Source: Escherichia coli (GTDB lineage Bacteria; Pseudomonadota; Gammaproteobacteria; Enterobacterales; Enterobacteriaceae). From it: a DNA stretch of 64,000 nt. The position numbers were made by a program, and so were the translations under genes. The DNA lies in the NCBI RefSeq assembly GCF_044324875.1, contig NZ_CP172185.1. The stretch is one strand, 5' to 3'. Shown here in pieces: positions 14,568-38,253 of the stretch. Position 1 is the stretch's first letter, and each line of letters opens with the position of its first letter. Under the pieces are notes generated by a model. It was not told the DNA's origin and made no database searches. It saw nothing but the letters and a program-made list of their open reading frames with translations.

Positions 14568-16639
<2,072 letters not shown>

Positions 16640-16651
16640 AATCAGCCTCGG

Positions 16652-18004
16652 TTAATGTGCTTTTTTAAGCTCTGCGATGCAGTCGGCAAAATTTGGCAAC
16701 CATTTCTCGTGCGCCAGAATCATCTCGCGTGCCAGCAGCTCAGCATCGCGATCGGAATGCACCAACGGACTAAGGTTTAGGGCCAGTAACACATCGTTAA
16801 ACTCTCCGCTAAGTGCGGCGTTGCTGGCAGCAATCTCGAAGCCTTTAATGGTGTGAATCAGCCCCATCACTTTATCATCGAAATGCGTAATGCGCGGATG
16901 TGGCGTCGCGCCATCGCGCCCCAGCGTACAGGTCATTTCTACCGCCCAGTCTGCCGGAATATTATCAATATGCCCATGATGCGGGATATTAACGTAATGT
17001 TCAGCTTGCTTGTCGTTGTAGATAGCGTTGATCACTTCGCACGCTGCATCAGAGTAATAAGCCCCACCGCGCTGTTCCAGTTCTTTCGGCTTAACTTTCA
17101 ACTCCGGGTTTTTATACAGCTCAAAAAGTTGTTTCTCGACTTTCTGTACTACCTGCGCTCGTGCGCCGCCTTTGTAGTATTCGCCCATTTCAATAGCCAG
17201 CATCTCTTTTTGCTTGAAGTAATAAAGCAAATAAGAACACGGCAACAGATTCAGAGAACGAATTAAGCCTTCGCTAAATGGCAGATCGAAAATATTTTTA
17301 ACGCCAGATGCTTTTAACTGCCCGGATGCCACACCATCAAGCAATTCGGCAAAGCGTGATTTGCCATTTACCAGCACATCTTTAATGAACACCATATGGT
17401 TGAGGCCGAACAGATCGATAGATAAATCATCGCTGCCTTTCAGCATCAGAACATCGCGAATAAACATCTTCATGCCGATCGGAATATTACACACGCCGAT
17501 AAAGCGTTTAAATCCGGTATGACGATAAACGGCTTCAGTGACCATTCCCGCCGGGTTAGTGAAGTTAATCACCCATGCATTCGGACAAAGTTCTTCGACA
17601 TCTTTTACGATGTCAAAAATCACCGGAATGGTACGCAGACCTTTAAACAGACCGCCCGCGCCGTTGGTTTCCTGACCAAGATAACCATGACTTAATGGAA
17701 TACGTTCATCCAGTTCGCGCGCCGGTAATTGGCCTACGCGCAGTTGGGTAGTAACGAAATCAGCATCTTTCAATGCTTCGCGGCGATCCAGCGTTTTATA
17801 AAGCTTCATCGGGACGCCAGCGTTATCAATCATCCGTTGGCAGAGATCAAAAATAATATCCAGTTTAGCTTTACCACCTTCGACATCCACCAGCCATAAT
17901 TCGCTGACCGGCAATTCGTGATAACGCTTAATAAATCCTTCCAGTAACTCCGGGGTATAGCTGCTCCCGCCACCAATAGTGACGACTTTTAATTTCTGGC
18001 TCAT
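16652..18004 (-). CDS. chbF: 6-phospho-beta-glucosidase / chitobiose-6-P hydrolase (GH4)
   Basis: MSQKLKVVTIGGGSSYTPELLEGF… GH4 NAD-binding N-terminus; true start at internal Met of the 468-aa ORF. Confidence 0.9.
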   Translation of the reverse strand: MSQKLKVVTIGGGSSYTPELLEGFIKRYHELPVSELWLVDVEGGKAKLDIIFDLCQRMIDNAGVPMKLYKTLDRREALKDADFVTTQLRVGQLPARELDERIPLSHGYLGQETNGAGGLFKGLRTIPVIFDIVKDVEELCPNAWVINFTNPAGMVTEAVYRHTGFKRFIGVCNIPIGMKMFIRDVLMLKGSDDLSIDLFGLNHMVFIKDVLVNGKSRFAELLDGVASGQLKASGVKNIFDLPFSEGLIRSLNLLPCSYLLYYFKQKEMLAIEMGEYYKGGARAQVVQKVEKQLFELYKNPELKVKPKELEQRGGAYYSDAACEVINAIYNDKQAEHYVNIPHHGHIDNIPADWAVEMTCTLGRDGATPHPRITHFDDKVMGLIHTIKGFEIAASNAALSGEFNDVLLALNLSPLVHSDRDAELLAREMILAHEKWLPNFADCIAELKKAH

Positions 18005-18106
18005 AATTTCTCCCTTCAGTACAGAATACTGATATCTGGCATATCTGCCCCCGGACATAAATAATCCAGCAACAGGACAGATATGTGAATTGTCAGGTAT
18101 AACGAC

Positions 18107-18949
18107 TTACTGATTAAATTCAGTCAATTTCTTACGATAGCTCTTAGGCGTAAAGGACGTTAATTTCTTAAACGTTTTAATAAACAAGCTCGGGCTACTA
18201 TAACCGGCCTCAAACGCAATATCCGTCACGGAATAGTTGGTCATTTCCAGTTGTTTTTTGGCAAAATTAATACGGATCTCATTAATAATCTGCATTGGTG
18301 TTTTGCCATAATATCGTTGAGTCGCTCGCGTCAAATATTCCTGTGATTTGGCTGACAACGTCACCATATTCTCCAGCGCCGATTCACTAAACTGCTCTTT
18401 ATCATGCATCTTTTCTACCGTACTTTTCAGCCACTGCGGTACATCATCAATCACCTGTTCTTCGCGGTAATGACGTAAACGGTTAATGACATAAAAAGTA
18501 ACCATCTCAACAAACTCTTCCAGCCCTGTTTCGCGGAAATTCAATGAAGAAATCACTGTTTCCACATAGGTGAGAAAAGCGTTATTGGTCCGGTATACCT
18601 GCGAAGCGACAAAGCAATAAGGCAACAACGGCAGGTAATGCTGCTCAAAAAAGCGTTTACTGATCCCAACATTCAATATGCGCGTGGCACCAAACTCATA
18701 AAAACTTTGATGGTGCGAACCTAACGGAATAAAAACAAAATCGCCCCGTTCCAGTAACACGCGCTTACCGTTAATCTCCTGGAAATAACGCCCGGTTAAT
18801 ACCAGAGTAAATTCATAATAGTCGTGCTGATGCAGTCCGCTGATACTCTCAGTTTTGTTGTAGATAAACACATGGAAGTTTTTGCCATTAAACAACTGCT
18901 GTTCTCGGGCAGTGGCAATTTCCGGCGCGTTAATCACTGGCTGCATCAT
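18107..18949 (-). CDS. chbR: AraC-family regulator of the chb operon
   Basis: 280-aa ORF with C-terminal AraC HTH; operon position. Confidence 0.9.
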
Positions 18950-18956
18950 CGACTCC

Positions 18957-19307
18957 TTATGCCTTCAGTTTTTCATGAAGCTCAATTAATTCGGTAATCA
19001 GTTCACGCGCAAGCATGGACGTCATTAAATGATCCTGAGCGTGGACCAGCACCAGACTCACTTTCATCTTACCTTCGCCCGCATCGCCTTCAATCAGTTT
19101 CGTCTGTACCAGATGCGCTTCATTCAATGCCATCCGTGACTGATCCATCATGGCTTTTGCTGCGGCAAAATCGCCCTGCTTCGCCTGTTTCAGTGCGGCA
19201 TACGCCAGGCTGCGCGCTTGTCCGGAGTTGATGATAAGTCCCATCACCACTTCTTCCAGCTCTTCAGCTTCTGTTTGCGTATCGGGAATGTTATCGAGAT
19301 CCATCAT
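18957..19307 (-). CDS. chbA: PTS chitobiose-specific IIA component
   Basis: 116-aa ORF, lactose/cellobiose-family IIA; operon position. Confidence 0.9.
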
Positions 19308-19357
19308 ACATCGTTCCTCTCTTTTCTTACCGGCACGATTACCCGTACCGGCATCGA

Positions 19358-20716
19358 TTAAAATTTCAGGGCGTTAGCGATATCTTCTTCGCTCTCTTCT
19401 TTATCAATCGCGTTTTGTGCTTTGTTAGCGACCACAATAAAGGGCAGATAAATTAACGTTGCGATACCAAGGTTGAAGAGTGCGACCAGCAATGCGGCGA
19501 CGCTACCGTTGGTGTTAAAGAAGGCTCCCAGACCGGTTGGCATGGTCCACGGTGCAATATTGGTCACCGGAGGAATAATGCCCATGTAGTAAGCTGCGAG
19601 GGTGATTGCCGCCAGAATCGGTTGTACCAGTACAAACGGAATAAACATCACCGGGTTCATGATAATTGGCAGACCAAACAGAATCGGTTCGTTAATCTGG
19701 AAGATGCCGGACGGCAGCGCCAGTTTTGCCACCTGACGATAATCAGCACGGCGAGAAGCGATAAAGATAGCCAGGATCAGACCCAAAGTCGCACCACTGC
19801 CCCCAAGGAAAATAAAGGAGTCCAGCATCGGCTTGGCCCAGATATGGAAGGTCTTACCGGCTGCCAGCGCCGCTTCGACGGAACCATATTGCTGATAGGT
19901 CGCGATATTTTCCAGCGCCCAAGGCGTCATAATGCCGTTGTCCAGTGCGGTCAGCGCCAGCGCACCATGAATACCGAAGAACCAGAGCAGTGGAACAAAG
20001 ATCACATAGGCCCAGCCCACCACGCTACCCAACGATGCCAGTGGGGTTGAGATGGTATCCATAATGATCTGATGGAAGTTGGTGCCCCAGGTATTCAACG
20101 CCCAGGCAATAATCCCCATCACGGAAAGAATAATAAAGCCGGGAATTAAAGCCGAGAAGGAACGCGATACTGAAGCAGGTACGCTATCGGGCAATTTAAT
20201 GACCCAATTGCGGCGGACAATAAAGGTAAACATTTCTGCCACCACCAGGCCAATAATAATCCCGGAGATGATATTCGCCCCACCTAACCAGTTTGCGCCA
20301 ACCGCATAGGCCTCACCGACACTGTATGGGGTGACGGTCATAAATGCTGCAACGGATAACAACCCAGCCGCCAGCGCATCGACTTTACGCTCTTCTGCCA
20401 GCGCCATGCCAATAAAGAACGGTGCCATTAAAGACATTATCCCTAATGTTCCGTTATATACGTTGCCGCCAATACCTTTCAGACCATTAAGTGTTTCAAT
20501 GGTTGAGGCATCCAGGCGAATACCTAAGGAATAAAAAAACGACCCCTCCCCAAAGCTTAGAAAAACGTTGTTAATTAATACAAACATGGCCCCCGCAAGG
20601 GTTAACGGCATTAAGCGAATAAAGCCATTTTTGATTGCATTAACGTGTGGCTGCTTTCCTATTTTAACTGCAAAAGGGAGGAGTACCTTTTCAAGCGATG
20701 CAATAACATTACTCAT
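19358..20716 (-). CDS. chbC: PTS chitobiose-specific IIC permease
   Basis: 452-aa polytopic membrane ORF; operon position. Confidence 0.9.
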
Positions 20717-20800
20717 AGAAAAATACCCTTAAAAACCGCAATTTAAATATTACGGTATTGATTTATGAAATAACTCTTTGACGGAAAAATTTAAAATAAA

Positions 20801-21121
20801 TTAATTTGCTGCGGCTTTTTTAATCGCTGCAACCGCAGCCTTAAGCACGCCTAAACCATCGACTTTGCCATAAAGCAGCGAGTCAATTACTTCAACCGGT
20901 TTGTTGGGTAACAAACGCTGGATTTCGGGCAACATATAAGCAATCTGCGGCCCTAATAACACGACATCGGCATTCTGACCTTTTTCACCAGCCAGTGTTT
21001 CCGGAAATGCTTCAATAATGACCGGAACTTCATATTTTTCTGCCTGTGCGCGCATTTTTGATACCAGTAAAGAGGTAGACATGCCCGCAGAACAAAACAG
21101 ATAAATGTGTTTCTTTTCCAT
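20801..21121 (-). CDS. chbB: PTS chitobiose-specific IIB component
   Basis: 106-aa ORF with active-site Cys near N-terminus ([19 protein letters not shown]). Confidence 0.9.
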
Positions 21122-21419
21122 AAAACTGCCCTCATCGACGATTATCTGTCAGCCAGACACTCCGCAAGCCTTAACCTGCTTCCATGCTCTGGGTAACTTG
21201 CGAAACCAACATGACTTTTTTTGTGGCTGAAAGGAGTATACGGTATAGACCTGAGCAATAGTATTTCTTTGACCTTATAAATTGTCTCTCCTTGACCTGC
21301 GGTTATGACCCTCTTCACATTTCGGGCAAATAATTCGCGAAGATAATTAAGAACTCAGGCCAAAAAAAACCGGCACAATGGCCGGTTTCCGTTGTAACTC
21401 AAGCTTTCAGGCGAAGTGA

Positions 21420-21758
21420 TTACTTCGCAGCCAGTGGATCAGTGTCGTATTCAGCACAGGTCTGATAACCGGAGTTGATGACATGTCCGGTATCATCTAA
21501 CGCGACAAAGTAGGTTTCTGCTTTACCATCACGTTGACCCAGGATGTAGGTCTGGCAAGTACCACGAGCATGGATCATGCTCACTTCAGACGAAGGTTTA
21601 CCTGCAATTTGTGCAACCTGCGCCCGGCTCATGCCTTTTTTGACGTCTTTCACCACAGGCTGTACAAACTGGTCTTTGGTACGATCATAAGCCGTACAAC
21701 CCGCCAGCATGGTTAATACCGCCGCTGCACTCAGAATTCCTGCCATATTCTTGTTCAT
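21420..21758 (-). CDS. osmE: Osmotically inducible lipoprotein E
   Basis: 112-aa ORF with lipoprotein signal peptide and lipobox (LTMLAGC). Confidence 0.9.
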
Positions 21759-21959
21759 ATTCCGTCCTCTTGTTTATCAGCGTGTTAGATAAGCCTGGAA
21801 TACATTGGGCGCTTTTTCAAGCCCGTGAACGAAACGGCTCCGCTTTCAGAGGATTCCTGTATGACGTTTTAACCACCATTCAGCCCGCTGTCGCTTGTCG
21901 TTTCAGTAGCAACGGGTTAGCTTTAAGGAAGTTTTGTCTTTTCTGTCTGGAGGGGTTCA

Positions 21960-22787
21960 ATGACATTGCAACAACAAATAATAAAGGCGCTGGGCGCAAA
22001 ACCGCAGATAAATGCTGAAGAGGAAATTCGTCGTAGTGTCGATTTTCTGAAAAGCTACCTGCAAACTTATCCGTTCATTAAATCACTGGTGCTCGGGATC
22101 AGCGGCGGTCAGGACTCCACGCTTGCCGGAAAGCTGTGCCAGATGGCGATTAATGAGCTGCGCCAGGAAACCGGCAACGAATCGCTGCAATTTATTGCCG
22201 TACGCCTGCCCTATGGTGTTCAGGCCGACGAACAAGATTGCCAGGATGCCATTGCCTTTATTCAACCGGATCGCGTATTAACCGTTAATATCAAGGGCGC
22301 GGTATTGGCAAGCGAGCAGGCATTGCGGGAAGCAGGCATTGAACTGAGCGATTTTGTCCGTGGCAATGAAAAAGCGCGTGAGCGGATGAAAGCACAATAT
22401 AGCATTGCGGGTATGACCAGCGGTGTCGTGGTGGGCACCGATCATGCAGCAGAAGCCATTACCGGATTCTTCACTAAATATGGTGACGGCGGTACGGACA
22501 TTAATCCGCTGTATCGTCTCAACAAACGTCAGGGTAAACAGTTACTGGCGGCATTAGGTTGCCCGGAACACCTTTATAAGAAAGCGCCAACGGCCGATCT
22601 GGAAGATGATCGCCCTTCTCTGCCAGATGAAGTGGCACTCGGCGTGACCTATGACAATATCGACGACTATCTGGAAGGGAAAAACGTACCTGAACAGGTC
22701 GCCAGAACAATAGAGAACTGGTATCTGAAAACCGAACATAAACGCCGTCCGCCAATTACCGTTTTCGATGATTTCTGGAAAAAGTAA
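21960..22787 (+). CDS. nadE: NH3-dependent NAD+ synthetase
   Basis: 275-aa ORF with PP-loop motif SGGQDS. Confidence 0.95.
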
Positions 22788-22824
22788 TAATTTGCACCTA
22801 TTGGATTGTGCGAAAAAGAGTAAT

Positions 22825-22855
22825 TTGTTCACGCCGGATGCGGCGTGAACGCCTT
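22825..22855. repeat. REP-like palindrome / terminator downstream of nadE
   Basis: GTTCACGCCGGATGCGGCGTGAAC, typical of enterobacterial REP elements. Confidence 0.55.
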
Positions 22856-22983
22856 ATTCGCCCCACAAAACTATGCAAATTCAATATATTGCATGAGTCG
22901 AATAGGCCTGACAGGCGTAGCACGTCAGACGGTGTAACCTTTGTCATCAACCCGCCTCTTTTTTAATCGCTCCCCGCCTGTTA

Positions 22984-23003
22984 CACTGGATAGATAACCA
23001 GCA
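22984..23003 (+). promoter_or_regulatory. Candidate LexA box upstream of cho
   Basis: ACTGGATAGATAACCAGCA (CTGG-N8-CCAG, a variant of CTGT-N8-ACAG) about 15 bp upstream of the cho start; cho is a known SOS gene. Confidence 0.45.
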
Positions 23004-23016
23004 TTCGGAGTCAACA

Positions 23017-24517
<1,501 letters not shown>

Positions 24518-24554
24518 TTAGTGGCGATCAGGCTTTTTTTGCATCTGTTTGAGA

Positions 24555-24630
24555 ACAAAAAAGAAAACCGCCGATCCTGTCCACCGCATTACTGCAAGGT
24601 AGTGGACAAGACCGGCGGTCTTAAGTTTTT
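24555..24630. terminator. Long hairpin with flanking T/A tracts between ves and spy (spy terminator)
   Basis: Arms CCGCCGATCCTGTCCAC and GTGGACAAGACCGGCGG separated by a 16-nt loop, with U-tracts on both strands. Confidence 0.5.
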
Positions 24631-24641
24631 TGGCTGAAAGA

Positions 24642-25127
24642 TTATTCAGCAGTTGCAGGCATTTTACCTTTTGCCGCTGGACGTTCTGTCAGACGCTTCT
24701 CAAAATTAGCATTAAATTGCTTTTTCTGTTCCGGCGTCAGGATGTTGTAAATCTTGTTCTGGGTTTCCATGTGCGCCAGCATGTTAGCTTTGCGCTGTTC
24801 TTCCATTTTTGCGATCTGCGCTTCAGCTTTTGCTTTATCGAAGGTATCGCTGGCAATGATGTCATGCATTGCGCGGCGTTCTTCCAGCGGCGGACGTTTC
24901 ATCTGGTCACGCTGGCCTTTCATGATTTCGCGGATCTGCTGTTTCTGCGCGTCGGTCAGGTTCAGGTCTTTGAACATCATGTCCTGATGCGGACCGAACT
25001 TGCCTTTGTGGTGCATCATCGGCTTCGCGTCAGCCGGTGCTGCGGTAGTGGTGTCTGCGGCATGGGCCAGGTTAGCCGCGCCAAGAGCCAGGGTAGAGGC
25101 AACAAACAGTGCAGTTAATTTACGCAT
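24642..25127 (-). CDS. spy: Periplasmic ATP-independent chaperone Spy
   Basis: 161-aa ORF with signal peptide and charged coiled-coil-like body. Confidence 0.9.
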   Translation of the reverse strand: MRKLTALFVASTLALGAANLAHAADTTTAAPADAKPMMHHKGKFGPHQDMMFKDLNLTDAQKQQIREIMKGQRDQMKRPPLEERRAMHDIIASDTFDKAKAEAQIAKMEEQRKANMLAHMETQNKIYNILTPEQKKQFNANFEKRLTERPAAKGKMPATAE

Positions 25128-25456
25128 ATTCTATATCCTTCCTTTCAGTTATTTATTACGGCTTTCTTAAGAAGCGTGCCGTGTTGACGAGATTAACTTT
25201 ACTGACTTTAGCGTCAATTAATCAGAGCAACGGTAAAACAATGAAAGTGTAAAAAACACTTTTGCGCCAATTATGGAGAAAAAAAGAAAATTTGATGGAG
25301 AGTGATGAGAAAATATTACAACACGATGATTTTGCAGAGATTATGAAGAACTATACCGGATGACTGGTGATAAATAAAGCAAATAACCAGGATTAATCTG
25401 TATTAATTTATAAGAAAGTAACTTAATACCCGCAGAATGATTTCTGCGGGTAAGTA

Positions 25457-31520
<6,064 letters not shown>

Positions 31521-31556
31521 TTAATAATAAGTAATGTTTGCGCTGTAAATGTAGAT

Positions 31557-31572
31557 TGCAGGGTTCGTGCCA
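31557..31572 (-). promoter_or_regulatory. Sigma-54 -24/-12 promoter element of astCADBE
   Basis: Minus-strand TGGCACGAACCCTGCA matches TGGCAC-N5-TTGCA with correct GG/GC spacing, about 75 bp upstream of astC. Confidence 0.6.
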
Positions 31573-31929
31573 GCCAGTGATAAAAGTGCATAAACCGCGG
31601 TGGCTAACTGGAAATCAAGGAGTTATAACCAAACCATATGCATTTAAAGTGCATATAAAGTGAATACGTTTGCGATATGGGTGAATAAAAAGAATAAAAA
31701 ACGCAATGTTATGCAGAAGTAAAATATAATTCTGGAATTGTGATCATTGACGAAATTTACTGGAAATTACTGCGCCATTCTGACGCAGCGCGCACCAAAA
31801 GCGGGCATTTTTTGCGCCATCGTTGACATCATTAACAACCATCGATCAAATCACTTAACAACAGGCGGTAAGCAAAGCGAAATTCTGCTACCATCCACGC
31901 ACTCTTTATCTGAATAAATGGCAGCGACT

Positions 31930-32736
31930 ATGAAATTTGTCTCTTTTAATATCAACGGCCTGCGCGCCAGACCTCACCAGCTTGAAGCCATCGTCGAAAA
32001 GCACCAGCCGGATGTGATTGGCCTGCAGGAGACAAAAGTTCATGACGATATGTTTCCACTCGAAGAGGTGGCGAAGCTCGGCTACAACGTGTTTTATCAC
32101 GGGCAGAAAGGCCATTATGGCGTGGCGCTGCTGACCAAAGAGACGCCGATTGCCGTGCGTCGCGGTTTTCCCGGTGACGACGAAGAGGCGCAGCGGCGGA
32201 TTATTATGGCGGAAATCCCCTCACCGCTGGGTAATGTCACCGTGATCAACGGTTACTTCCCGCAGGGTGAAAGCCGCGACCATCCGATAAAATTCCCGGC
32301 AAAGGCGCAGTTTTATCAGAATCTGCAAAACTACCTGGAAACCGAACTCAAGCGTGAAAATCCGGTGCTGATTATGGGCGATATGAATATCAGTCCTGGC
32401 GACCTGGATATTGGCATTGGCGAAGAGAACCGTAAGCGCTGGCTGCGTACCGGAAAATGCTCTTTCCTTCCGGAAGAACGCGAATGGATGGAGAGACTGA
32501 TGAGCTGGGGGTTGGTCGATACCTTCCGCCATGCGAATCCGCAAACAGCCGATCGTTTCTCATGGTTTGATTACCGCTCAAAAGGTTTTGACGATAACCG
32601 CGGTCTGCGTATCGACCTGCTTCTCGCCAGCCAACCGCTGGCAGAATGTTGCGTAGAAACCGGCATCGACTATGAAATCCGCAGCATGGAAAAACCGTCC
32701 GATCACGCCCCCGTCTGGGCGACCTTCCGCCGCTAA
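31930..32736 (+). CDS. xthA: Exodeoxyribonuclease III
   Basis: [36 protein letters not shown]… (268 aa). Confidence 0.95.
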
Positions 32737-32902
32737 TTTAGCTGTTCTCCTGGCTCAAACTGGGTCAGGAGAATTAACCTTGAGAAAAATCAACAAACTG
32801 TCAGTAATGATTTGTTGCCTGCCGCCCTTTGTTATACCGTCACTGCGTTTTTAGTTGTCTGACCACTTCTCTATTATCAAGTTTGATATAGGAAACTCCA
32901 CA

Positions 32903-33613
32903 ATGAACGCTGAGCGTAAATTTCTTTTTGCCTGTCTTATTTTTGCGCTGGTCATTTACGCTTTCCACGCTTTCGGTTTATTCGAGCTGCTCACCGATTT
33001 ACCTCATTTACTGACACTCATTCGCCAGAGCGGATTGTTCGGTTATAGCCTCTATATTCTGTTATTCATCATTGCCACCCTCTTTCTGTTACCAGGAAGC
33101 ATACTGGTGATCGCTGGAGGAATAGTTTTTGGCCCGCTCTTAGGGACACTACTATCATTAATTGCCGCCACGCTGGCCTCCTCGTGCTCATTCCTGCTGG
33201 CGCGCTGGCTGGGACGTGATTTACTGCTGAAATACGTTGGCCATAGCCATACCTTCCAGGCCATTGAGAAAGGCATTGCGCGTAACGGTATTGATTTTCT
33301 TATTCTGACCCGCTTAATCCCGTTGTTTCCTTACAATATTCAAAATTACGCTTACGGATTAACCACAATCGCCTTCTGGCCTTATACCCTTATTTCAGCA
33401 CTCACGACTCTGCCCGGTATTGTTATTTATACCGTGATGGCAAGCGATCTCGCCAATGAAGGCATTACGCTGCGCTTTATTTTACAACTCTGTCTGGCGG
33501 GCCTGGCGCTGTTTATTCTCGTCCAGCTCGCCAAACTCTATGCTCGACACAAACATGTGGATCTGTCTGCTTCGCGCCGCAGCCCACTTACTCACCCAAA
33601 AAATGAAGGATAG
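32903..33613 (+). CDS. ydjX: TVP38/TMEM64 (DedA-like) family inner membrane protein YdjX
   Basis: Hydrophobic ORF; likely start MNAERKFLF…; synteny. Confidence 0.8.
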   Translation: MNAERKFLFACLIFALVIYAFHAFGLFELLTDLPHLLTLIRQSGLFGYSLYILLFIIATLFLLPGSILVIAGGIVFGPLLGTLLSLIAATLASSCSFLLARWLGRDLLLKYVGHSHTFQAIEKGIARNGIDFLILTRLIPLFPYNIQNYAYGLTTIAFWPYTLISALTTLPGIVIYTVMASDLANEGITLRFILQLCLAGLALFILVQLAKLYARHKHVDLSASRRSPLTHPKNEG

Positions 33614-33617
33614 AACG

Positions 33618-35608
33618 ATGTTGCAACATTATTCAGCGTCATGGAAAAAAGGACTGACTGCACTCTGCTTACTGGCTGTTGCCGGGCTTAGCGGCTGCGA
33701 TCAAAAAGAGAATGCGGCGGCAAAAGTGGAATACGACGAACTTTCGAACAGCCAACCGCTGCGTGTCGATGCTAATAACCATACGGTAACCATGCTGGTG
33801 CAAATTAATGGTCGTTTCCTCACCGACGACACTCGTCACGGTATTGTGAACCGCCCCGGGTTTCCTGGAGAGTGTTTTATCTGTGAACTCAGGCTGCCAG
33901 ATCATCGTTTCCGATGGAAGCATAATAAGCTTTTTCTGCTTCTGCCGGTGGGATATGGCCCAGCCTTTCCAGCAATCGTCGATTGTTATACCAGTCCACC
34001 CACGTGAGTGTGGCCAGCTCCACTTCTGTCCGGTTTTTCCAGCTCTTACGGTGTATTACCTCCGCTTTGTAAAGGCCATTGATGCTCTCCGCCATCGCGT
34101 TGTCATACGAGTCACCAGTACTTCCTGTTGATGCCAGTAATCCGGCTTCCTTAAGCCGCTGTGTGTAGGCCAGCGATACATACTGAGAACCTTTATCACT
34201 GTGATGGACTGTGCCGGACGGTCGACGGGCCCATAACGCCTGCTCCAGAGCATCCAGCACGAATGTCGTTTCCATAGACGATGAGACCCGCCACCCCACG
34301 ATGTATCCGGCAAACACATCAATGATGAACGCCACATAGACGACCCCCTGCCATGTGCTGACGTAAGTAAAATCAGCCACCCACAACTGGTCAGGACGTT
34401 CTGCCACAAACTGACGGTTTACGCGGTCGCCTGCGGCAACGGCTTTCCGGCTGACGGTAGTGCGGACCTTTTTACCCCGGAGAACACCGGCAAGTCCCAT
34501 AACCGCCATGAGGCGCGCCACTGTACATCTGGCTACCCTGATTCCTTCCCGTAACAACTGACGCCAGACTTTACGCACACCGTATACCTGATGATTCCCA
34601 TCGTATACGCGCAGTATCTCTTTCTTCAGCCAGTCATCGCGCTGCGCACGGGCACTGCGTTTATCCGGATGATGTCGCTGTTGCTGACAGTGGTAATACG
34701 TTGACGGGGCAATATGTAGTTCACTGCATACCGGTCCGACCCCGTACAGCTTACGCAGCTTATCCAGCAGTGGCATCACTTTTTCCAGAGGCGGTCGAAC
34801 TCCGCCTTCGCAAAATAAGCGGAAGCCTGGCGAAGGATATCGTTACTGCGGCGCAGTTCACGATTTTCACGTTCCAGCTCTTTCAGACGCTGACGTTCAG
34901 CGGTGGTGAGCCCGCCATCACCGCCTCCGGTATCCCGCTCATGCTGGCGTACCCAGACACGCAGAGTCTCCGGTGTACAGCCAATCTTTGGGGCAATGGA
35001 ACAAATTGCCGCCCACTGTGAGTCATATTCGCCCTGACTTTCCAGAACCATACGAATCGCCCTCTGACGGACTTCGGGGGAAAAACGAGTATTTTTAGTC
35101 ATTCTGTTTACCTCTTTCTCAGGGAGTTTAGTCTCCAGGATTCCCGGGGCGGTTCATTGTGTTTAAAGATGGCTCCAACGGACATAAATCGCTGTTTATG
35201 GGTTATGCGACCCCGAAAGCATTTTATGAAGCCCTGAAAGAGGCAGGTGGTACACCGGGCGAAAACATGACGATGGATAATAAAGAAACGACTCATGTCA
35301 CAGGCAGCAAACTGGATATTTCGGTCAACTGGCAAGGGGCGGCAAAAGCGTATTCCTTCGATGAAGTGATTGTTGACAGTAATGGCAAGAAACTGGACAT
35401 GCGCTTTGGCGGTAATTTAACGGCAGCAGAAGAGAAGAAAACGGGCTGCCTGGTGTGTCTGGATAGCTGCCCGGTCGGCATCGTCAGCAATGCAACATAC
35501 ACTTATGGTGCGGTTGAAAAACGAGGTGAAGTTAAATTCAAAGGCAATGCCTCGGTTCTCCCGGCGGATAACACGCTGGCAACGGTTACCTTTAAAATCA
35601 CCGAATAA
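33618..35608 (+). pseudogene. ydjY: ydjY interrupted by IS629
   Basis: 5' part 33618..33846 (MLQHYSASWKKGLTALCLLAVAGLSGC…TRHGI) and 3' part 35157..35608 (VFKDGSNGHK…TFKITE) are in frame once the 1310-bp IS and one copy of the TTG duplication are removed. Confidence 0.8.
33847..35156 (-). mobile_element. IS629-like insertion sequence (IS3 family), copy 2, 1310 bp, inverted relative to copy 1
   Basis: Same termini; orfA 34776..35102 identical to copy 1; orfB 33889..34779 differs by a few residues (e.g. HPDKR vs HPYKR); 3-bp TSD TTG on both flanks. Confidence 0.85.
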
Positions 35609-35622
35609 AGCCAGGATAAAGA

Positions 35623-36330
35623 ATGATGAAGATGCAATCGAGAAAAATCTGGTACTACCGTATAACCCTCATCATCCTGTTGTTCGCTATGCTGCTGGCA
35701 TGGGCGCTGCTTCCCGGCGTCCATGAGTTTATTAATCGCAGCGTTGCGGCGTTTGCCGCCGTGGACCAACAGGGTATAGAACGCTTTATTCAGTCTTACG
35801 GCGCACTGGCGGCAGTTGTCTCGTTCTTGTTGATGATTTTGCAGGCCATTGCTGCACCGCTACCTGCGTTTCTGATCACCTTTGCAAATGCGTCGCTGTT
35901 TGGCGCGTTCTGGGGCGGCTTGCTGTCGTGGACCAGTTCGATGGCCGGCGCGGCGCTGTGCTTTTTTATCGCCAGAGTGATGGGCCGCGAAGTGGTGGAA
36001 AAGTTAACGGGTAAAACGGTACTCAATAGTATGGACGGCTTTTTTACCCGCTATGGTAAACACACCATTCTGGTATGCCGATTATTGCCTTTTGTGCCTT
36101 TTGATCCCGTAAGCTATGCTGCCGGTTTGACTTCAATACGTTTTCGCTCGTTTTTTATCGCCACCGGGCTTGGTCAGTTACCAGCGACTATTGTTTATTC
36201 CTGGGCGGGCAGCATGTTAACAGGCGGTACTTTCTGGTTTGTCACCGGACTGTTTATTCTGTTTGCCCTGACCGTGGTGATTTTTATGGCGAAGAAAATA
36301 TGGCTTGAGCGCCAGAAGAGGAATGCCTGA
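35623..36330 (+). CDS. ydjZ: TVP38/TMEM64 (DedA-like) family inner membrane protein YdjZ
   Basis: 235-aa membrane ORF; synteny. Confidence 0.8.
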   Translation: MMKMQSRKIWYYRITLIILLFAMLLAWALLPGVHEFINRSVAAFAAVDQQGIERFIQSYGALAAVVSFLLMILQAIAAPLPAFLITFANASLFGAFWGGLLSWTSSMAGAALCFFIARVMGREVVEKLTGKTVLNSMDGFFTRYGKHTILVCRLLPFVPFDPVSYAAGLTSIRFRSFFIATGLGQLPATIVYSWAGSMLTGGTFWFVTGLFILFALTVVIFMAKKIWLERQKRNA

Positions 36331-36878
36331 TGGGTTTACCGCCGCTTAGCAAAATTCCTTTCATTTTACGTCCGCAGGCGTGGCTGCATCGTCGCCATTA
36401 CGGCGAGGTGCTAAGCCCGATTCGCTGGTGGGGGCGGATCCCGTTTATCTTTTATCTGGTGTCGATGTTTGTCGGCTGGCTGGAGCGCAAACGCTCACCG
36501 CTGGATCCAGTAGTGCGATCGCTTGTCAGCGCGCGCATTGCGCAAATGTGTCTGTGTGAGTTTTGCGTGGATATCACCAGTATGAAAGTCGCCGAGCGCA
36601 CTGGCAGCACCGATAAACTGCTGGCAGTGGCTGACTGGCGGCAAAGCCCGCTCTTTAGCGATGAAGAACGGCTGGCGCTGGAGTACGCCGAAGCCGCAAG
36701 CGTAACGCCGCCAACGGTCGATGATGCCCTGCGTACCCGACTGGCTGCGCATTTTGACGCCCAGGCGCTCACCGAACTGACGGCATTGATCGGACTGCAA
36801 AACCTGTCAGCCCGTTTTAATTCTGCCATGGACATTCCCGCTCAGGGGCTGTGCCGTATTCCTGAAAAACGTTCTTAA
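36330..36878 (+). CDS. ynjA: Carboxymuconolactone decarboxylase-family protein YnjA
   Basis: 182-aa ORF; synteny. Confidence 0.8.
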   Translation: MGLPPLSKIPFILRPQAWLHRRHYGEVLSPIRWWGRIPFIFYLVSMFVGWLERKRSPLDPVVRSLVSARIAQMCLCEFCVDITSMKVAERTGSTDKLLAVADWRQSPLFSDEERLALEYAEAASVTPPTVDDALRTRLAAHFDAQALTELTALIGLQNLSARFNSAMDIPAQGLCRIPEKRS

Positions 36879-37065
36879 GGAGGGTACTACCTTCACTTCT
36901 ACCTCTGCCTCCCAAACTCCGTAAAACTCATGCACAATCACCATATTACAGTCAACCCGAACATTATGAGCTCCACTGAATTCTACTGTTCACCCCCTAA
37001 ATCAAGCATAAAATGGGGGCATATTTGGGGGCCCATTGTGTTCAGTCAGTTTCAGGAGCCCCCAT

Positions 37066-38253
37066 ATGGCACTTACAGCCAGACAAGTCGAAACAGCCAA
37101 ACCTAAAGACAAAGATTATAAACTCTCTGATGAACGTGGTTTATATCTGCTGGTAAAAACCACGGGAGCACGCTACTGGCGCTTTAAGTACAGGATAGCA
37201 GGAAAGGAGAAAAAACTGTCCTTCGGTGTCTATCCTGACGTCTCCCTTGCAGAAGCCAGAACCAAACGCGACGATGCAAGGAAAATTATCTCCGAGGGCG
37301 GTGATCCCGGTGAAAAGAAACGAAGGGAAAAACTCTCACAGAAAATCTCTGTCACCAACACCTTCCATGCTCTCGCAATCGAATGGCATCATCATAAATC
37401 TTTATCATGGTCTGACAGTTACGCCAGAAGCGTACTGGAAGCTCTGGATAAAGACGTTTTCCCGTATCTGAGCAACCGGAGCGTTACTGATATCCTTCCA
37501 CTGGAAATGCTGGAAATACTACGTCGAATTGAAAAACGAGGCTCTCTGGAAAAACTACGCAAGGTCCGGCAATACTGCAATCAGATTTTCCGTTATGCCA
37601 TAGCCACAGGACGAGCCACTGTCAATCCAGCCTCAGAACTGAGCAGCACGCTGGCGGCACCAAAAACCGCACATTTTCCCCATCTGAGAGCGGATGAACT
37701 TCCTGTTTTTCTCCGGAAGCTCGCTGACTATCACGGCAGTCCTGTCACTCGTATGGCTACAAACCTGCTGATTCTGACCGGGCTCAGAACGATTGAATTG
37801 CGACTGGCCGAATGGTCAGAAATTGATTCTAGCAACGCACTCTGGCATATCCCTAGAGAGAGAATGAAAATGCGCCGGCCTCATATTGTTCCTCTGTCAC
37901 GCCAGGTCATTTCTGTTCTGCAGGAATTACATGGTTTTACCGGACAGTATCGCCTTATGCTACCCGGACGTTGCGATGTAAACAAACCTATGAGTGAAGG
38001 CTGCATCAATATGGTGCTCAAACGTATCGGTTACGATGGCAGGGCAACCGGTCATGGTTTTCGTCACACCATGAGTACCATTCTGCACGAACAGGGCTTT
38101 AATTCTGCCTGGATTGAAATGCAGTTAGCTCATGTGGATAAAAACTCCATCAGGGGTACCTATAATCATGCACATTATCTCGATGGTCGCCGTAAAATGA
38201 TGCAGTGGTACGCTGATTACATTGATTCTCTTATGGGAAAAACGCACAAATGA
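37066..38253 (+). CDS. int: P4-type tyrosine integrase (phage/island integrase)
   Basis: MALTARQVETAKPKDKDYKLSDERGLYLLVKTTGARYWRFKYR… typical P4-like N-terminus; catalytic region HGFRHT…RGTYNHAHY; RBS CAGGAG upstream. Confidence 0.85.
   Translation: MALTARQVETAKPKDKDYKLSDERGLYLLVKTTGARYWRFKYRIAGKEKKLSFGVYPDVSLAEARTKRDDARKIISEGGDPGEKKRREKLSQKISVTNTFHALAIEWHHHKSLSWSDSYARSVLEALDKDVFPYLSNRSVTDILPLEMLEILRRIEKRGSLEKLRKVRQYCNQIFRYAIATGRATVNPASELSSTLAAPKTAHFPHLRADELPVFLRKLADYHGSPVTRMATNLLILTGLRTIELRLAEWSEIDSSNALWHIPRERMKMRRPHIVPLSRQVISVLQELHGFTGQYRLMLPGRCDVNKPMSEGCINMVLKRIGYDGRATGHGFRHTMSTILHEQGFNSAWIEMQLAHVDKNSIRGTYNHAHYLDGRRKMMQWYADYIDSLMGKTHK

Follow-up and report, generated by a model that had tools for sequence, protein, structure and literature searches.

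In the 64,000-nt stretch of Escherichia coli DNA analysed here (the window), ydjY is, with near certainty, interrupted by a complete IS629-type insertion sequence of the IS3 family, flanked by a 3-bp target-site duplication (Table 1). As read from its coding frames, ydjY is a null allele, and lowered expression of the genes downstream, ydjZ and ynjA, would be expected. We consider this account as a whole, namely insertion of an IS629-type element, loss of ydjY and an expected polarity through Rho, to be distinctly probable.

Table 1. Positions of the features discussed in the text, numbered from the first nucleotide of the window
Feature	Position	Strand	Remarks
FNR-box-like sequence TTGAGAAAAATCAA	32780-32793	plus	upstream of ydjX, in the operon promoter region; 13/14 matches to TTGAT-N4-ATCAA
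ydjX (DedA/TVP38 family)	32903-33613	plus	upstream gene of the operon
ydjY 5' fragment	33618-33846	plus	signal peptide, lipobox LSGC; codons 1-76
Target-site duplication, left copy (TTG)	33844-33846		abuts IS end
IS629-type insertion sequence (IS3 family), complete	33847-35156	transposase genes on minus	1310 bp
IRR (orfB-distal)	33847-33871	minus	1 nt different from IRR of the BP-4795 IS629
orfB	33889-34779	minus	296 aa; -1 frame relative to orfA; DDE (rve) domain, PF00665, E=3.5e-27
-1 frameshift region (AAAAAG slip site and ALIL pseudoknot)	34705-34821	minus	Rfam RF01497
orfA	34776-35102	minus	108 aa; HTH_Tnp_1 DNA-binding domain, Pfam PF01527, E=1.8e-12
IRL (orfA-proximal)	35132-35156	minus	TGAACCGCCCCGGGAATCCTGGAGA in minus-strand reading; same as IRL of the BP-4795 IS629
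Target-site duplication, right copy (TTG)	35157-35159		abuts IS end
ydjY 3' fragment	35160-35608	plus	codons 77-225 if the G shared with the duplication is included; 149 codons, no signal peptide
ydjZ (DedA/TVP38 family)	35623-36330	plus	first gene downstream of the insertion
ynjA (carboxymuconolactone decarboxylase family)	36330-36878	plus	start overlaps ydjZ stop (TGATG)
P4-type tyrosine integrase	37066-38250		first gene of the genomic island

Insertion site and reconstruction of ydjY

The trinucleotide TTG directly flanks both ends of the element; a 4-bp duplication was excluded, since the extended sequences, ATTG and TTGT, differ. When the two ydjY fragments were joined with one TTG copy removed, an open reading frame of 678 nt (225 codons plus stop) was obtained, which reads ...TRHGI VFKDGSNGHK... 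across the joint. The original prediction had described an IS629 insertion that splits ydjY, a TTG target duplication, a ydjY frame that continues once one copy is removed, and an element lying within the ydjX-ydjY-ydjZ-ynjA string and oriented against it; on each of these points it was confirmed, the transposase reading frames being on the minus strand and the operon genes on the plus strand. The rebuilt protein was identical at 224 of 225 residues to the annotated "lipoprotein YdjY" (WP_000939218.1) of strain DG341-1, whose DNA at the insertion point, GGTATTGTGTTTAAAG, contains TTG once, and it matched the model NF040466 (ydjY_domain) over residues 49-223 with 145.9 bits (cutoff 50). The alignment to intact ydjY that had been proposed as a check revealed that the flanks are contiguous ydjY in one piece: the reconstructed empty site (1197 nt) gave a single ungapped match with 100% coverage in 5352 of the 5426 complete E. 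coli genomes, with identities of up to 99.9%, and the matched region covers features annotated as ydjX, ydjY and ydjZ. This structure would be accounted for by transposition of an intact IS629-type element into codon 76/77 of ydjY, which is second in the gene order of the operon, with formation of the usual 3-bp duplication.

Upon insertion, the frame of the 5' fragment runs into the IS and ends at a stop codon at 34005-34007, so that a chimera of 129 aa is predicted, composed of the signal-peptide and lipobox part followed by 52 IS-encoded residues. The domain described by NF040466 is divided by the insertion.

In the rebuilt YdjY, a C-x2-C-x3-C-P motif (CLVCLDSCP) was noticed within residues ~146-212 (window ~35365-35565), a possible sign that the protein has a metal or Fe-S site. 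A Pfam search with YdjY gave no match, and a sequence search of the PDB returned only non-significant ferredoxin-like matches (FwdG and NuoI, E ~0.3) around this motif. It was also noticed that a ydjY in an unrelated E. coli read set (Logan assembly of ERR3328011, contig 80, 8418-9095) carries a nonsense mutation at codon 62 (Q62*, CAA to TAA); this mutation being independent, ydjY has been lost more than once.

Anatomy of the element

The element begins and ends with TGAACC...GGTTCA, which together with its length fits the 5'-TG...CA-3' ends and the size of about 1.2-1.55 kb of the IS3 family, and its inverted repeats (TGAACCGCCCCGGGTTTCCTGGAGA / TCTCCAGGATTCCCGGGGCGGTTCA) match at 23 of 25 nt. 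The 14-mer found at the ends, TGAACCGCCCCGGG, occurs at four sites in the window against 0.04 expected, and these four sites are both ends of two IS copies, the one in ydjY and another described below. On the coding side, OrfB matched the IS3 family transposase model (NCBIfam NF033516, transpos_IS3) with 308.7 bits (cutoff 160). The 3' end of orfA reads AAA-AAG-TGA, orfB is open in the -1 frame, and the ALIL structure was matched over its full length (116.2 bits, E=2e-30; gathering score 50); a -1 slip modelled at AAA-AAG yields an OrfAB of 404 aa, the frameshifting being predicted from these sequence features. Length and ends, orfA and orfB with slip site and RNA structure, the match to the transposase model and a short direct duplication (3-5 bp in the family) all place the element in the IS3 family, and to judge from its sequence it looks fully functional.

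By ISfinder convention, copies with more than about 90% identity in DNA and/or more than about 95% in transposase are regarded as isoforms. Compared with the IS629 of phage BP-4795 (AJ556162.1), the element aligned without gaps over 1310 bp with 96.1% nucleotide identity (51 nt different), and its proteins were identical at 107 of 108 residues for OrfA (99%) and 285 of 296 for OrfB (96.3%); Stx-phage copies annotated as "IS3 family IS629" gave 95.7-95.8% at the nucleotide level, all of these values referring to copies named by their depositors rather than to the S. sonnei (Shigella) type sequence of ISfinder. Identity to depositor-named IS629 is therefore at the isoform level. IS629 is known from E. 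coli O157:H7, Stx phages and Shigella. It has been divided into three subtypes 4-5% apart, with IS1203 and IS3411 treated as isoforms; it generates target duplications of 3-4 bp and uses targets without sequence specificity (PMC3271280). The present element resembles IS629 in its 1310-bp length, the layout of orfA and orfB, the frameshift region and the 3-bp duplication, and its ends are close to those of the BP-4795 copy (Table 1), whereas the 51 nucleotide differences set it apart from the phage or O157 type by a gap comparable to the published distance between subtypes (PMC3271280). Because of the 96.1% identity, the element is, on sequence comparison, an IS629 isoform or subtype about 4% from the O157:H7 phage type, for which the name is justified at the isoform level; the designation IS629 in the original prediction thus holds with this qualification. 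Many full-length copies at least 99.8% identical to the element were found on chromosomes and plasmids of avian and human E. coli, where the annotation is merely "IS3 family transposase".

Rarity of the insertion allele

A 2510-nt query running across the site with the IS in place was covered to 80% or more in none of the 5426 complete E. coli genomes, and the insertion is thus absent from all of them. The 30-mer spanning the left junction had no match in JGI metagenome contigs or in GTDB species-representative genomes, the exact 129-aa YdjY'-IS chimera was not on record in public assemblies, and a look-up with the exact YdjX protein returned only common intact loci, none with the left junction. 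The right junction is real and is present in at least one independent data set, as a contig of 2027 bp in the Logan assembly of ERR1512459, which begins within the end of the IS, is 100% identical to positions 35129-37155 of the window. For the left junction, the evidence is the sequence of the window together with the reasoning from the duplication. No paper covered by the literature search names both IS629 and ydjY, and the specific IS629-ydjY allele appears to be unreported; the kind of event is already known, that is, a known IS with a standard footprint and a textbook knockout. Inactivation of single genes by IS629 has been documented, including knockouts of gne and lacZ in STEC (PMC3271280, PMC9397093).

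Second IS copy, genomic island and backbone

Another IS629-type copy lies at 15255-16564; its transposase is encoded on the plus strand, so that its orientation is opposite to that of the copy in ydjY. The two copies are identical at 1306 of 1310 nt, with three amino-acid changes in OrfB, and the second is flanked by a 3-bp duplication of its own (GGC/GGC). Removal of this copy restored a 252-aa reading frame of chbG (chitooligosaccharide deacetylase) on the minus strand, and chbG has therefore also been knocked out. Since this second copy is so nearly identical and has its own matched duplication, the element has been recently active. An inversion between the two oppositely oriented copies was rejected, as the duplications flanking each of them still match.

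Sequence homology to E. coli lacking the island stops 4 nt after the ynjA stop codon. There, at 36883, where ynjB should start, a genomic island begins that replaces the ynjB ribosome-binding site and start and extends to at least 46330, probably to the end of the window. Its first gene encodes the integrase listed in Table 1, and it holds many pseudogenes and IS fragments; neither a tRNA gene nor ynjBCD was found in the whole window. The same island junction was present in 27 complete E. coli genomes, such as those of the chicken isolate DG341-1 and of NRZ14408, and ydjY was intact in those inspected. Because the inspected genomes that share the island have an intact ydjY, the IS insertion is a later event, recent and lineage-specific. 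For the 17-kb backbone at 16565-33846 (chb, ast, xthA and ydjX), the best match among the 5426 complete E. coli genomes was only 99.4%, to ST2747 strains, so that complete genomes cover the source lineage poorly.

Operon context and expected polarity

The operon genes are tightly packed, with gaps of 4 nt between ydjX and ydjY, 14 nt between ydjY and ydjZ and -1 nt between ydjZ and ynjA, and the same layout was seen in all 10 other loci inspected; ydjZ is preceded by its own AGGA Shine-Dalgarno sequence. Long untranslated RNA in which C exceeds G is a typical substrate for termination by Rho. In the stretch of the insertion that would be left untranslated, C outnumbers G by 349 to 277, and in 80-nt windows the C/G ratio reaches 2.3 near 34500-34650. 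A search for intrinsic terminators on the plus strand inside the IS revealed no strong one, the only candidate being a 5-bp stem at 33856-33868, and this weakens the case for polarity.

It has been reported that ydjXYZ-ynjABCD form one operon activated by FNR from a site at -60.5 (PMC3688515), and its expression under standard conditions has been described as weak (PMC8921622). Searching the whole window for FNR boxes gave 44 matches against 39 expected, which is not above chance; the FNR-like box in Table 1 therefore takes its meaning solely from its position upstream of ydjX together with the literature. Transcripts that start at the FNR-dependent promoter upstream of ydjX would enter an IS that is antisense to the operon and, after the stop codon at 34005-34007, would have to traverse 1151 nt (about 1.15 kb) of antisense IS sequence that is not translated, with about 1.6 kb to be covered before the ydjZ start. 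This C-rich stretch would be expected to trigger Rho-dependent termination, which is probably the mechanism of polarity, and so to lower expression of ydjZ-ynjA. Given the single, FNR-activated and weakly expressed operon and the tight packing of its genes, we infer that polarity on ydjZ-ynjA is likely, though well short of assured. Its effect may be small, as there is little expression of the operon under standard conditions in the first place (PMC8921622). The situation is similar to classical polar insertions of IS1, IS2 and IS3 in gal and lac, in which an IS in an upstream operon gene makes translation end early and leaves much untranslated RNA before the next gene, except that for the ydjY insertion the polarity is deduced.

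Alternative explanations

It is conceivable, if rather unlikely, that ydjZ and ynjA have a promoter of their own in the 3' part of ydjY, in which case the insertion would hit ydjY alone with little effect downstream. A relaxed scan did return weak sigma-70-like sites in the 3' fragment that could give ydjZ-ynjA some independent expression, the best candidate (ATAACA-19-TAAAAT, 35568-35598) lying about 25 nt upstream of the ydjZ ATG with 9 of 12 matches and a poor 19-nt spacer, and the Shine-Dalgarno sequence of ydjZ also speaks for such a promoter. However, the single FNR-dependent transcription unit published for ydjXYZ-ynjABCD (PMC3688515) counts against it, as do the 14-nt gap between ydjY and ydjZ, typical for co-transcribed genes, and the standard scan, by which no promoter site was found in the 3' fragment and only 2 in the region against 4.3 in shuffled sequence. 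The original prediction had also suggested that downstream expression may depend on outward IS transcription, and for this part of it no support was obtained. Some IS3-family elements carry an outward-facing -35 box, with which hybrid promoters are possible, so that an IS could keep ydjZ-ynjA on or even activate them; in IS911, IS2 and IS3, IRL is known to hold the inward transposase promoter and IRR the outward -35 of the circle-junction promoter, and IS629 would be expected to follow this pattern. Here, it is IRL that faces ydjZ, whereas IRR faces ydjX and is antisense to the operon, and neither the standard scan nor the relaxed one, which accepted 8 of 12 matches, returned a sigma-70-like site directed towards ydjZ on the plus strand at 34600-35160, the final 560 bp of the element. 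Activation or maintenance of ydjZ-ynjA from within the IS is thus very improbable.

Two further explanations concern the insertion itself. Misassembly is a well-known hazard where IS copies are repeated, and the left junction was absent from the other data sets searched (public assemblies, JGI metagenome contigs and GTDB representatives), which would fit a repeat copy misplaced during assembly. A misjoin would hardly produce a perfect duplication of 3 bp with which the ydjY frame is recovered exactly, however, and the right junction with 2 kb of flank is identical in the independent assembly of ERR1512459. The two IS copies of the window differ at four positions, and a matching duplication flanks each of them; we regard the chance of an artefact as negligible. 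It may also be asked whether inactivation of the operon was selected, not accidental, in the source lineage, as a step towards the convergent loss of an envelope function induced by FNR. This idea derives from the additional cut after ynjA by the integrase-bearing island and from the independent Q62* allele in an unrelated read set, and transcription outward from IRR, if any, which by the orientation of the IS would run antisense into ydjX, was counted in its favour; nevertheless, we consider it very improbable. Insertion of an IS629-type element with loss of ydjY and an expected polar effect on ydjZ-ynjA is the explanation that we prefer.

Implications

The finding is an ordinary one, a well-understood type of knockout in a weakly expressed and poorly characterised operon, with little import beyond annotation. 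An annotation of this genome should label ydjY a pseudogene disrupted by an IS629-type element and indicate that ydjZ and ynjA may be under-expressed. With no occurrence in 5426 complete E. coli genomes, the junction is rare, and IS-based typing could use it to mark the lineage. As YdjY, the DedA family proteins YdjX and YdjZ, and YnjA are poorly characterised, a natural strain that is null for ydjY and possibly polar on the genes downstream may at most be a convenient strain for comparison.
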